A DNA stretch of 64,000 nt from Escherichia phage JoYop: sequence record OR769032.1; one strand, given 5' to 3'. Shown here piece by piece: positions 48,735-50,132 of the stretch; position 1 is the first letter of the stretch; every line of letters starts with the position of its first letter. The notes beneath the pieces are model-generated. The model ran no database searches. It had not been told where the DNA came from and worked only from the letters and a program-made list of their open reading frames with translations. The position numbers and the translations under genes were made by a program.

Positions 48735-48811
48735 TGGTCGAGACAGAAGGATTCTAACCTTCAACCTACGGATTAGAAGTCCGTTGCTCTATACAATTGA
48801 GCTATGCCTCG
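48735..48811 (-). tRNA. tRNA-Arg (anticodon UCU)
   Basis: Hand-folded cloverleaf; anticodon loop CTTCTAA; encoded CCA; 77 nt. Confidence 0.75.
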
Positions 48812-48815
48812 TATT

Positions 48816-48890
48816 TGGCGGACATGCATGGATTCGAACCATGGACCAATTGATTAACAGTCAACTGCTCTACCACTGAGCTACACATCC
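48816..48890 (-). tRNA. tRNA-Asn (anticodon GUU)
   Basis: GGATGTG...GCTCAGTGGTAGAGC D-arm, loop CTGTTAA, T-arm CATGGTTCGAATCCATG, CCA end. Confidence 0.8.
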
Positions 48891-48894
48891 AAAT

Positions 48895-48981
48895 TGGTGG
48901 GGAGTGATGGAGTCGAACCACCCGAGTCGCAATGACAATGGATTTACAGTCCACACCGCTACCTCTACGGGATAACTCCCC
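48895..48981 (-). tRNA. tRNA-Tyr (anticodon GUA), long variable arm
   Basis: Loop CTGTAAA; class II variable arm; acceptor GGGGAGT/ACTCCCC; CCA end. Confidence 0.75.
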
Positions 48982-48994
48982 TTAATTCTTAATT

Positions 48995-49069
48995 TGGTGG
49001 CCCTGGGTGGAATTGAACCACCATCTGGCGATTATGAGTCGCTTGCTTGAACCTTCCAGCTACAGGGCC
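48995..49069 (-). tRNA. tRNA with CAU anticodon (Met, or Ile if the wobble C is modified as in T4)
   Basis: Loop CTCATAA; acceptor GGCCCTG/CAGGGCC; T-arm GGTGGTTCAATTCCACC. Confidence 0.75.
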
Positions 49070-49070
49070 T

Positions 49071-49146
49071 TGGTGCTGATTGACGGAATCGAACCGCCGA
49101 CCTTCTCATTACAAGTGAGTTGCTCTACCTACTGAGCTAAATCAGC
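49071..49146 (-). tRNA. tRNA-Thr (anticodon UGU)
   Basis: Loop CTTGTAA; acceptor GCTGATT/AATCAGC; T-arm GGCGGTTCGATTCCGTC. Confidence 0.8.
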
Positions 49147-49150
49147 AAAA

Positions 49151-49241
49151 CTGGCGGAGGCGATAGGATTTGAACCTATGAGTCGCCGGAGCGACTGCCG
49201 GTTTTCAAGACCGGTGCATTAAACCACTCTGCCACGCCTCC
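49151..49241 (-). tRNA. tRNA-Ser (anticodon UGA), long variable arm
   Basis: Loop CTTGAAA in CCGGT/ACCGG stem; class II variable arm; acceptor GGAGGCG/CGCCTCC. Confidence 0.8.
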
Positions 49242-49243
49242 AG

Positions 49244-49317
49244 TCTCCATACAAGGATTTGAACCTTGGACCTCCTGATCCCAAATCAGGCGCTCTACCA
49301 AACTGAGCTACACGGAG
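49244..49317 (-). tRNA. tRNA-Pro (anticodon UGG), CCA not encoded
   Basis: Loop TTTGGGA; C1-G72 acceptor; 3' end abuts tRNA-Ser without CCA. Confidence 0.75.
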
Positions 49318-49327
49318 TAAATTAAAT

Positions 49328-49401
49328 TGGAGCGGATAATGAGAATCGAACTCACATCATCAGATTGGAAGTCTGAGGTAATGCCATTATACGATATCCG
49401 C
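49328..49401 (-). tRNA. tRNA-Gly (anticodon UCC)
   Basis: Loop CTTCCAA in TCAGA/TCTGA stem; acceptor GCGGATA/TATCCGC. Confidence 0.8.
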
Positions 49402-49406
49402 AAATT

Positions 49407-49493
49407 TGGTGCGAGAAGTGGGACTCGAACCCACAAGGAAATCATTCCGCAGCATTTTAAGTGCTGTGCCTTTACCAATTTGACCATTCTCGC
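49407..49493 (-). tRNA. tRNA-Leu (anticodon UAA), long variable arm
   Basis: Loop CTTAAAA in CAGCA/TGCTG stem; class II variable arm; T-arm GTGGGTTCGAGTCCCAC. Confidence 0.8.
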
Positions 49494-49499
49494 GCTATA

Positions 49500-50132
49500 T
49501 TATTTATTACGTGAAAAAGACTGTTCTATCAATTCTGGACACTTTCGTTCTATCCATTTTCTAGCTTTTTGTGGGCTTATACCTATTATTTTAGCAGCTT
49601 TACTAACCCATCCAAATTTAGAATAATCGATTTTAACTAATTCTTCGTAAATTTCATCAGTTAAAATCTTTTCATTAATATTTACCAGTAAATGATATAA
49701 TTTATTATCATTAGCAATTTTAATGAATCTTTTATAGTTTCCGCCTTTACTTAAACCTAATGAAGTAATTGCAGATGATATAGTAGCCGAATTTAATAGT
49801 GCGTTTAAAATTTCTTCATCACTAACATTATAACGCTTTTTATTATTTTTAATATTTTTACCAGCAAAAGTATCAGTTTGCGAATGGCAATTTGGACATA
49901 ATAATCTTAAATTTGATTTAAGATGATTTTTGTTATTTCCATCAATATGATCTAATTGCAGAACAATATGCTTATTTTGCCATTTTGAAATTTTACAAAT
50001 TGCACACTCATATGGAAAAATATTTTCTTTTATTATTTTGTCTTTCAGCTTTCCTGTACTAAAATTTGGATGTTTTCCTTCAAAAATTTCAGCTAATTTA
50101 GTATCCATAATATAATTCCCAATTATTAACAA
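49500..50132 (-). CDS. HNH homing endonuclease
   Basis: 210 aa; HNH core LQLDHIDGNNKNHLKSNLRLLCPNCHSQ; sits at the 5' head of the tRNA cluster. Confidence 0.75.
   Translation of the reverse strand: MLIIGNYIMDTKLAEIFEGKHPNFSTGKLKDKIIKENIFPYECAICKISKWQNKHIVLQLDHIDGNNKNHLKSNLRLLCPNCHSQTDTFAGKNIKNNKKRYNVSDEEILNALLNSATISSAITSLGLSKGGNYKRFIKIANDNKLYHLLVNINEKILTDEIYEELVKIDYSKFGWVSKAAKIIGISPQKARKWIERKCPELIEQSFSRNK

Follow-up and report, generated by a model that had tools for sequence, protein, structure and literature searches.

In crosses of phages T4 and T2L, the endonuclease SegB cuts preferentially in the T2L gene for the transfer RNA (tRNA) tRNA-Asn, and the T4 segment Ile-segB-Arg replaces the T2L segment Met-Tyr-Asn-Arg (PMC2330249). 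SegB is associated with tRNAs across phages (PMC13096335). The F-Tfl genes of phage T5 lie in the T5 tRNA region according to a passage of PMC2330249 that refers to Akulenko et al. 2004, and passages of PMC5966550 and PMC6409571 both cite Pope et al. 2014 for HNH genes in tRNA arrays. That homing endonucleases overwrite or amplify genes of phage tRNA clusters is already published (PMC2330249, PMC13096335) and not a new idea. The locus analysed here belongs to Escherichia phage JoYop (OR769032.1), of which a stretch of 64,000 nucleotides (nt), referred to as the window, was studied; nine tRNA genes and an HNH endonuclease gene at their head occupy positions 48735-50132. We assign a probability of about 0.68 to the whole reading, in which a ten-tRNA ancestor lost tRNA-Gln to a cassette carrying the HNH gene, as sequence comparison demonstrates, and the cassette spread as a homing nuclease gene, as we infer.

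Sequence identity and synteny place the window in Tequatrovirus, the T4-like coliphages; the region is ~96% identical to Tequatrovirus phages such as ACG-C40, and at least 80% of it is covered by 38 phage records. In the 64-kb window ARAGORN predicted nine tRNA genes, which all lie on the minus strand within 48735-49493, in the transcription order Leu(UAA), Gly(UCC), Pro(UGG), Ser(UGA), Thr(UGU), a tRNA with the anticodon CAU, Tyr(GUA), Asn(GUU) and Arg(UCU). Rfam model RF00005 matches the same nine with 30.2-72.9 bits (gathering threshold 29), eight of them scoring 59-73. ARAGORN reported no tRNA-Gln anywhere in the 64-kb window. Eight of the tRNAs carry an encoded CCA and tRNA-Pro lacks it, as read from the sequence, and the stop codon of the HNH open reading frame (ORF) lies 6 nt before tRNA-Leu. 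An earlier annotation made by a model from the letters and a list of ORFs, here called the sequence-only reading, had arrived at the same nine anticodons and order, including Tyr and Asn, the missing Gln, the tRNA-Pro without CCA and the HNH gene at the cluster head, and the automated predictions bear it out on each of these points.

The array of T4 reads Gln-Leu-Gly-Pro-Ser-Thr-Ile-(segB)-Arg, that of T2 and T2L Gln-Leu-Gly-Pro-Ser-(ORF trna.1)-CAU-Tyr-Asn-Arg, that of T6 Gln-Leu-Gly-Thr-CAU-Tyr-(segB)-Arg and that of RB3 and Kha5h Gln-Leu-Gly-Pro-Ser-Thr-CAU-Tyr-Asn-Arg. HNH-headed arrays are found in ACG-C40 and a51, (HNH)-Leu-Gly-Pro-Ser-Thr-CAU-Tyr-Asn-His-Arg, and in EC.W14-2 and the JoYop window, (HNH)-Leu-Gly-Pro-Ser-Thr-CAU-Tyr-Asn-Arg. 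On this comparison the window set is the common ten-tRNA RB3/Kha5h set minus Gln, and Kha5h, a Gln-type phage, comes closest to the window backbone over 5.6 kb. The syntenic position and the orthologous tRNA order of the RB3/T2L-type T-even cluster are preserved in the window, and only nt 1-9 are left of tRNA-Gln(UUG), the first gene of clusters of that type. The sequence-only reading had set the window against T4: the anticodon differences that it listed are real, its framing is not, since the tail Ile2-Tyr-Asn-Arg is common (RB3, Kha5h, T2L). T4 rather than JoYop represents the derived state for Tyr and Asn, because SegB homing overwrites the Met-Tyr-Asn-Arg module (PMC2330249), and the Tyr/Asn difference is therefore unconnected with the HNH gene discussed here.

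The loss of tRNA-Gln can be followed base by base in an alignment of the interval between the ORF trna.2 and tRNA-Leu from the window, T4, ACG-C40 and Kha5h. Homology is unbroken through the leader and Gln nt 1-9, stops, and resumes at AGC immediately before tRNA-Leu. The 9-nt tRNA-Gln remnant TGGGAATTA lies at 50113..50121 on the minus strand, in unbroken homology with T4 and Kha5h. The 3' junction TATAGC, from the HNH stop codon to the first nucleotide of tRNA-Leu, lies at 49494..49499 (minus strand); its AGC corresponds to the two final bases of T4 tRNA-Gln and the spacer between Gln and Leu. Nucleotides 10-71 of tRNA-Gln in Gln-type phages correspond to a 616-nt cassette in the window, composed of TATT, the 609-nt HNH gene and TAT, which brings hardly any non-coding sequence with it. 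In all seven HNH-carrying loci examined the stub is present, as TGGGAATTA or TGGGAATCA, and the junction is the same; stub and tRNA-Leu start 628 nt apart. Because the stub remains, a pre-existing Gln gene must have been truncated, which gives the direction of the change, and because one junction is common to all seven carriers, the replacement arose once. The alignment directly shows that the HNH cassette physically replaced tRNA-Gln, and this accounts for the Gln loss. Relaxed demand is not the reason for the loss of tRNA-Gln(UUG), since CAA is the majority Gln codon (68% of Gln codons, 22.8 per 1000, in 60 long ORFs of the window). The GGGA of the stub, 8 nt before the HNH start codon ATG, may have become the ribosome-binding site of the HNH gene. 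Upstream of HNH homologues with 58% identity in two distant contigs (L021 and L022, ~3985-4000), the leader ends in AATGGGTAATTGGAAACAACATG, resembling AATTGGGAATTATATTATG of the window; a Gln-stub-like sequence may have been kept with the HNH gene in distant lineages, the match being short and AT-rich.

The HNH gene was initially delimited as a 210-codon ORF from a TTG at 50132 to 49500. The true start is almost certainly the ATG at 50108, because this is the position at which the PHROG profile, every homologue and the GenBank annotations start, which defines a free-standing gene for a protein of 202 amino acids (aa) at 49500..50108 on the minus strand. Its predicted layout comprises an N-terminal zinc-bound HNH domain (~30-90), a helical linker and a C-terminal helix-turn-helix-like domain (~160-195), and the structure prediction suggests an HNH fold. 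PHROG HNH families match with E-values of 5e-124 (family-specific), 2.5e-29 and 1.3e-11. Pfam PF01844 stays below its cut-off (17.3 vs 21.4 bits), and two homologues (P0003, P0004) carry a precomputed weak PF01844 match; an NCBIfam search with the protein returned weak sub-cutoff matches only, e.g. to the IscB HNH region, and a PDB sequence search only noise. In an alignment of 25 sequences, down to 37% identity, C35, C38, H54, N66, C71, N73, C74 and H75 are invariant and D53 nearly so. They form the zinc-bound HNH motif DHIDGN...NLRLLCPNCH with the catalytic His, the Asn and the CxxC...CxxC expected of a beta-beta-alpha-metal nuclease, and G166, W167 and P179 of the C-terminal part are invariant as well. 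The invariance of catalytic and zinc residues in the alignment points to purifying selection for nuclease function. Among characterised proteins, T5 hegA/F-TflIV is the nearest relative, with 34.7% identity over residues 16-184 (84% of the length; tblastn E-value 5e-15). In the T5 record AY543070 the match covers 36433-36852, annotated as 'hegA: H-N-H endonuclease TflIV', and a tRNA-Tyr gene lies at 35336-35426. The HNH gene of JoYop thus combines significant full-length similarity to the T5 hegA/F-TflIV family with the location in a tRNA cluster.

In a census of the GenBank phage collection the HNH cassette occurs in 63 phage records, a count that includes RefSeq/GenBank duplicates, always at one place and with 97.7-99.8% nucleotide identity; tRNA-Gln occupies that slot in ~448 phage records. 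A search of IMG/VR with trna.2 yielded six loci only. Among seven carriers the mean pairwise difference of the cassette is 0.98%, and nearby genes of the same carriers differ by 9-25% in places; in EC.W14-2, trna.3 is 75% and the Asn-Arg pair 80-83% identical to the window. The flank haplotypes of the carriers are ones also seen in Gln-type phages, and the cassette sits on several of them. Presence or absence at one locus and a gene much less diverged than its surroundings, as found here, are the marks of a homing gene, and the low divergence of the cassette on several flank haplotypes fits recent horizontal spread. Distant metagenomic T4-like phages have HNH homologues with 68% and 58% identity in the same syntenic slot; the 68% homologue starts 14 nt after an intact tRNA-Gln, and the others head arrays with quite different tRNAs. 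In the contig with the 68% homologue (L020; ERR11438051_264, 4604-5009), a ~400-nt non-coding stretch follows the HNH gene and precedes a T4-type tRNA-Ile; its beginning shows homology to the window's rnaD region (...AAGTCGTCGAACTGACGTTCCCTGTTATACGGG...), so that this array reads Met(CAU)-Gln-HNH-rnaD-like-Ile.

With the alignment as query, the best 80 relatives of the HNH protein were fetched from IMG/VR, many of which are made up of the ~85-aa HNH domain alone. Their loci contain 534 tRNA genes in 398 kb (1.34 per kb). A tRNA gene lies at most 300 nt from the conserved match in 57 of the 80 loci and at most 1 kb in 70, and in 28 a tRNA on the same strand starts no more than 30 nt from the stop codon, most commonly tRNA-Leu(UAA) (10 loci), which is also the neighbour of the HNH gene in the window. 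In control loci around relatives of the window's own T4-type lysozyme, 5 tRNAs were counted in 284 kb (0.018 per kb) and none within 1 kb (0 of 54). The resulting contrast in tRNA density between HNH and lysozyme loci is ~75-fold, against a control which is dominated by T4-like phages and not ideal. This HNH family is a tRNA-array resident, and the linkage in 70/80 vs 0/54 loci suggests that its enzymes read tRNA-gene sequence. By analogy with SegB, which reads a T-arm motif, it is conceivable, although we regard it as a tentative and rather doubtful extension, that the family recognises tRNA-gene DNA, settles 5' of a tRNA, mostly tRNA-Leu(UAA), and constitutes a second independent engine of array remodelling across unrelated phages. 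The same analogy leaves room for the idea that the family might drive the amplification of anti-defence tRNAs.

Similar scars were found in other T-even arrays. In most of the examined arrays in which a tRNA of the maximal set is missing, the slot holds a nuclease gene or its remnant, an exception being T6, where Pro and Ser are missing with no ORF in the gap. CM8 carries a SegB-like GIY-YIG gene in the Pro slot, BP32 and T6 carry segB in the Asn slot, and in JEP6 an HNH head is joined to a T4-type Ile-segB-Arg tail. In T2 (PV648363, 3651-4170; T2L 460-985) the ORF trna.1 occupies the Thr slot behind a 16-nt Thr stub GCTGATTTAGCTCGGT, of which 15/16 positions match. The ORF was treated as one of unknown function in the 2008 paper on T2L (PMC2330249). 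Its product is homologous to the C-terminal DNA-binding two-thirds of the CM8 SegB-like protein (E-value 8e-16) and lacks the GIY-YIG domain, and trna.1 is apparently a decayed seg homing-endonuclease gene. A C-terminal DNA-binding module common to the HNH protein, the CM8 SegB-like protein and T2 trna.1 was considered and is not claimed, the comparison of the HNH family with either being weak (hhalign E 0.005 with a probability of 7%, and E 0.12). Shigella phage CM8 (NC_054939) also contains an unannotated tRNA-Tyr pseudogene, which is intact up to the T-loop GGTTCGACTCC, the SegB core motif, and scrambled thereafter; the pseudogene and the SegB-like gene lie in the regions 1698-1801 and 2055-2663. 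The segB-like cassettes of CM8 and BP32 have the same 46-nt leader right after the CCA of the preceding tRNA, although they occupy different slots.

Based on these data we propose the following scenario. The ancestral array was Gln-Leu-Gly-Pro-Ser-Thr-Ile2(CAU)-Tyr-Asn-Arg, as in RB3 and Kha5h, and a 616-nt cassette with little beyond the HNH gene replaced Gln nt 10-71, leaving the 9-nt stub, as the sequence comparisons show directly. Beyond that, the HNH protein would be an active site-specific nuclease of the T5 hegA/F-TflIV kind, which in mixed infections would cut or nick Gln-type relatives in or beside the tRNA-Gln and tRNA-Leu genes. Recombinational repair from the HNH-bearing genome would then copy the cassette in and delete Gln, and carriers would be immune since their target is gone. 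The HNH gene would be co-transcribed with the tRNAs, and RNase P probably clips the message 6 nt after the stop codon, which would keep HNH expression low, as proposed for segB and the T5 F-Tfl genes. The seven tRNAs for A-ending codons (Leu, Gly, Pro, Ser, Thr, Ile2 and Arg) would supplement the host tRNAs for an AT-rich phage, and Tyr, possibly also Asn, may buffer against host tRNA-cleaving defences.

Several observations weigh against homing by this enzyme. A search for co-conversion in 7 HNH-type and 7 Gln-type loci, which took in 500 nt on the upstream and 340 nt on the downstream side of the junction, revealed no flank polymorphism that segregates with HNH status and no visible co-conversion tract; this outcome is uninformative rather than negative, because the tRNA genes next to the junction do not vary (99-100% identity in all phages). 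Given the single common junction, co-infecting T-even phages could afterwards have passed the cassette on by ordinary homologous recombination. Nor is Gln necessarily the target, since the 68% homologue adjoins an intact tRNA-Gln. No convincing sigma-70 promoter was found between trna.2 and the HNH gene, where matches are no commoner than in shuffled sequence, and transcription presumably originates further upstream. Homing by this HNH protein is thus a well-founded deduction from sequence comparison. Alternatively, the HNH gene might be a resident passenger, inactive or non-homing, after one illegitimate replacement of Gln, its patchiness reflecting general T-even recombination. The identical junction in all carriers and the lack of single-nucleotide polymorphisms associated with HNH in the flanks agree with such a history, as do flanks (trna.2 and the tRNA core) which are 94-100% identical in all relatives and offer ample homology for exchange; long vertical residence would also be in keeping with the diverged homologues that distant T4-like phages carry in this slot. 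A passenger, however, would hardly keep its catalytic and zinc residues invariant across 25 homologues down to 37% identity, nor would it be expected to diverge by only ~1% where nearby genes of the same carriers differ by 9-25%, and without mobility directed at tRNA genes it would be difficult to account for a family embedded in the tRNA arrays of so many unrelated phages. We regard a mere passenger as unlikely.

Still less probable in our view is that selection on translation or counter-defence mainly shapes the repertoire, Tyr, Asn and Ile2 being kept as useful, Gln being dispensable and the endonuclease incidental. It is true that 7/9 tRNAs read A-ending codons, which are frequent in a genome with 35% GC, that the T4 tRNA region is non-essential (PMC2330249) and that phage tRNA-Tyr counteracts Septu and retron-Eco7, T2 with Tyr being resistant and T4 without Tyr being sensitive (PMC13096335). 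However, the lost tRNA-Gln(UUG) reads the majority codon CAA, most of the examined slots of missing tRNAs hold a nuclease gene or remnant instead of a clean deletion, and selection explains which tRNAs stay and not how Gln was lost. The reverse order of events, with the HNH gene ancestral at the array head and tRNA-Gln inserted later in the T4, T2 and RB3 lineages, was rejected; homologues at the head of tRNA arrays in distant T4-like phages would suit it, but the carriers keep Gln nt 1-9 contiguous with the common leader, a truncation signature which effectively refutes it, and Gln-type arrays are ~7 times as numerous as HNH-type arrays and show greater diversity. Replacement of Gln by a mobile nuclease gene is thus the reading we prefer. 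The proposal of the sequence-only reading that homing endonucleases drive tRNA turnover is well supported by the comparison made here and by the literature (PMC2330249, PMC13096335, PMC5966550, PMC6409571); this particular HNH gene accounts for the loss of Gln and not for the Tyr/Asn difference.

The window may also be open to SegB itself. A 27-bp SegB site was reconstructed from the T2L record, and the reconstruction reproduces the published differences between the Asn and Ser sites at G6, A16, G18, A26 and A27 (PMC2330249). The tRNA-Asn of the window carries a SegB-type 27-bp site, GGTTCGAATCCATGCATGTCCGCCAAA, which keeps these five positions; its only differences from T2L fall at the degenerate positions 12-14 and 17. 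Judged from this site, JoYop is probably still a recipient for homing of T4/T6-type segB. The exact core GGTTCRANTCC is present in 7/9 window tRNAs and absent from Gly and from the Arg allele (GGTTAGAATCC).

The individual tRNA genes, all on the minus strand and called by both ARAGORN and Rfam, are arranged as follows. tRNA-Leu(UAA) at 49407..49493 is 100% identical to T4, T2 and RB3, tRNA-Gly(UCC) at 49328..49401 is 99-100% identical to relatives, and tRNA-Pro(UGG), without encoded CCA, at 49243..49317 is identical to T4 tRNA-Pro. tRNA-Ser(UGA) at 49152..49241 has an encoded CCA as in T2L, the T4 tRNA-Ser lacking it, and tRNA-Thr(UGU) at 49071..49146 is 96% identical to T4 with compensatory changes in the anticodon stem. 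The CAU-anticodon tRNA, most likely tRNA-Ile2 on the comparison with E. coli given below, lies at 48995..49069. tRNA-Tyr(GUA), with a long variable arm, at 48895..48981 is marginal in Rfam (30.2 bits) but 99-100% identical to tRNA-Tyr of T2L, RB3 (both annotated) and Kha5h and 97% identical to that of phage rV5. tRNA-Asn(GUU) at 48816..48890 is a Kha5h-type allele (100% to Kha5h, 84% to T2L and RB3), as is tRNA-Arg(UCU) at 48735..48811, which is unrelated in sequence to T4 tRNA-Arg (57%). Relative to T4, Leu and Pro are identical and Gly, Ser and Thr 96-99% identical, and the CAU and Arg genes of the window differ from the T4 Ile and Arg genes (63% and 57% identity). Kha5h has the same nine genes at 100% identity.

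Among close relatives the Asn-Arg pair exists in two strongly diverged allelic forms: the one in the window and Kha5h is only 79-84% identical to that of T2, RB3, ACG-C40 and EC.W14-2, where the neighbouring tRNAs are 99-100% identical. The Arg allele of the window has an unusual T-loop, GGTTAGAATCC, in which A replaces the near-universal C56 and the SegB core motif is disrupted, and its D-loop (AATTGTAT) lacks GG; the two oddities may represent a covarying tertiary pair. The Tyr and CAU genes are 97% and 99% identical to their counterparts in rV5-like phages (Vequintavirus, myoviruses of an unrelated group; rV5 NC_011041, 2504-2578 and 3063-3149), the other isotypes in common with rV5 (Pro, Ser, Thr and Arg) only 68-83%, and in both the window phage and rV5 the CAU tRNA follows Thr after 1 nt. 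The Tyr and CAU matches suggest recent swapping of single tRNA genes between phage families. The window tRNA-Tyr is 85% identical to T5 tRNA-Tyr.

For the CAU tRNA the sequence-only reading had left the choice between Met and Ile. The matches from E. coli are all annotated as tRNA-Ile among the 12 listed, which were sampled across the ranking of 5,362 records, and identity is 78.9% to E. coli tRNA-Ile(CAU) vs 66.2% to elongator tRNA-Met, whose reference sequence was verified in 5,424 genomes. The anticodon arm GCGACTCATAATCGC agrees with the E. coli Ile2 gene at 15/15 positions. The acceptor stem starts with GGCCC and forms C4-G69 and C5-G68, which we take to be determinants for TilS, and the G1-C72 pair leaves no initiator-type 1:72 mismatch. 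AUA is used 11.8 times per 1000 codons in the window ORFs. With greater similarity to bacterial tRNA-Ile(CAU) than to tRNA-Met and with an anticodon arm and acceptor stem of the Ile2 type, the gene most likely encodes a lysidine-modified, AUA-reading tRNA-Ile2, like the non-orthologous tRNA-Ile of T4; an initiator or elongator Met identity was rejected on sequence comparison, so that of the two earlier options Ile is the favoured one. Many 'tRNA-Met' labels of T-even phages in GenBank should probably read tRNA-Ile2.

The whole region is a tRNA and stable-RNA transcription unit that consists of leader, tRNAs, one small ORF, rnaD, rnaC and terminator; its features lie on the minus strand. T4 synteny is kept upstream (gp1, 57A, 57B, internal protein, trna.4, trna.3, trna.2) and downstream of the tRNAs (the small stable RNAs rnaD-rnaC, then e.8). 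The upstream edge is marked by the trna.2 ORF of 95 aa at 50219..50506 (tblastn 97% to T4 trna.2; phrog_2023, E 1.6e-46; synteny with T4 and ACG-C40). The conserved leader between trna.2 and the first tRNA slot (50122..50218) is near-invariant relative to T4 and ACG-C40 up to the junction, homologous in Gln-type and HNH-type phages, and holds a hairpin-like ACCCTctatcatcaAGGGT. Between tRNA-Arg and rnaD lies an ORF of 108 aa at 48390..48716 (phrog_3355, E 2e-51; no Pfam or NCBIfam match), named 'trna.2' in the T2L record AJ880101, which was found in T2, Kha5h, ACG-C40, CM8, JEP6 and BP32 and not in T4 and RB3. The rnaD-like stable RNA (species 2) at 48250..48369 aligns with annotated T4 rnaD at 82.6% identity and is variable in its centre. 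The rnaC-like RNA (species 1) at 48105..48243 is 97.8% identical to annotated T4 rnaC and has a tRNA-like 3' domain with the T-arm CCGGGTTCGAATCCCGG. At gathering thresholds Rfam picked up neither RNA (48105-48369). In ACG-C40, ARAGORN miscalls a 'tRNA-???' downstream of the post-Arg ORF, in the stretch where the stable RNAs of the window map. An intrinsic terminator hairpin at 48031..48054, with a 10-bp stem containing 7 GC pairs and a subsequent T-run, closes the unit.

Just past the terminator, an ORF of 157 aa at 47507-47980 recurs in Kha5h and EC.W14-2 (DNA identity 93-99%). In CM8, JEP6 and a51 the annotation shows ORFs of equal size here, and T4, T2, RB3 and ACG-C40 have no counterpart. 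This ORF, which has no Pfam match, represents another insertion/deletion polymorphism. On the other side, trna.3 (50509-50922) and the internal-protein gene (51145-51453) are hot spots of divergence or replacement among relatives otherwise 95-100% identical: trna.3 shows 75-96% identity, and the internal-protein gene is alignable with T2 and EC.W14-2 only, which fits the known hypervariability of T-even internal-protein genes.

The finding is ordinary in kind, a tidy and unsurprising case of nuclease genes reshuffling phage tRNA sets. The tRNA set is already published or deposited (PMC2330249, GenBank), as are the HNH head (annotation of ACG-C40 and others) and the same architecture (EC.W14-2). 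Our literature search found no description of the base-pair anatomy of the Gln replacement with its stub, of the T2 Thr stub or of a quantitative linkage between the HNH family and tRNAs, and no paper on ACG-C40 in combination with HNH and tRNA. The locus provides a base-pair-resolved case of a nuclease gene that overwrote a tRNA gene still of use to the phage, CAA being the majority codon, and supports the view that the traffic of selfish elements shapes phage tRNA repertoires as much as codon adaptation or counter-defence does. The practical value is modest; Kha5h paired with an HNH carrier offers a convenient system in which a possible second homing nuclease of tRNA clusters could be examined next to SegB.

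Compared with described systems, the HNH genes of mycobacteriophage and other viral tRNA arrays offer a likeness in concept only: according to passages of PMC5966550 and PMC6409571, they are the commonest coding sequence in the arrays and implicated in repertoire diversity, but these reports are descriptive and concern other phage groups. T5 hegA/F-TflIV likewise lies inside a phage tRNA cluster, ~1 kb from the T5 tRNA-Tyr; the relationship is, however, distant and extends to another phage family, and the sites of the T5 enzymes are not transferable to this HNH protein. T4 SegB differs in being a GIY-YIG enzyme, in occupying the slot between Ile and Arg instead of the Gln slot and in having an experimentally demonstrated site (the T-arm motif GGTTCRANTCC) and homing activity. 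Both are nevertheless encoded by free-standing genes of the same tRNA cluster, segB being co-transcribed with the tRNAs and the HNH gene presumably so, the spread of segB overwrites tRNA genes, and in both the stop codon abuts the 5' end of a tRNA, so that RNase P processing probably limits expression (PMC2330249; PMC13096335). Clusters of the RB3/Kha5h/T2L type (AJ880101, KM606994, KT184312; Brok-Volchanskaya et al. 2008, PMC2330249) have the same order from Leu to Arg followed by rnaD and rnaC, with individual tRNAs 95-100% identical, and the window shares with T2L the encoded CCA of Ser and the small ORF after Arg; the window differs from them by the HNH gene in place of tRNA-Gln, and T2L in addition lacks Thr. 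The closest counterparts are other carriers. ACG-C40 (NC_019399) has the same HNH protein (100% identity; annotated 'HNH endonuclease similar to T5 TflIV') at the same junction and an extra tRNA-His between Asn and Arg. EC.W14-2 (PQ860993) and ACG-C40 both carry the other Asn/Arg allele and different trna.3 and internal-protein alleles, and EC.W14-2 shares with the window an identical architecture of the HNH gene and the same nine tRNAs.

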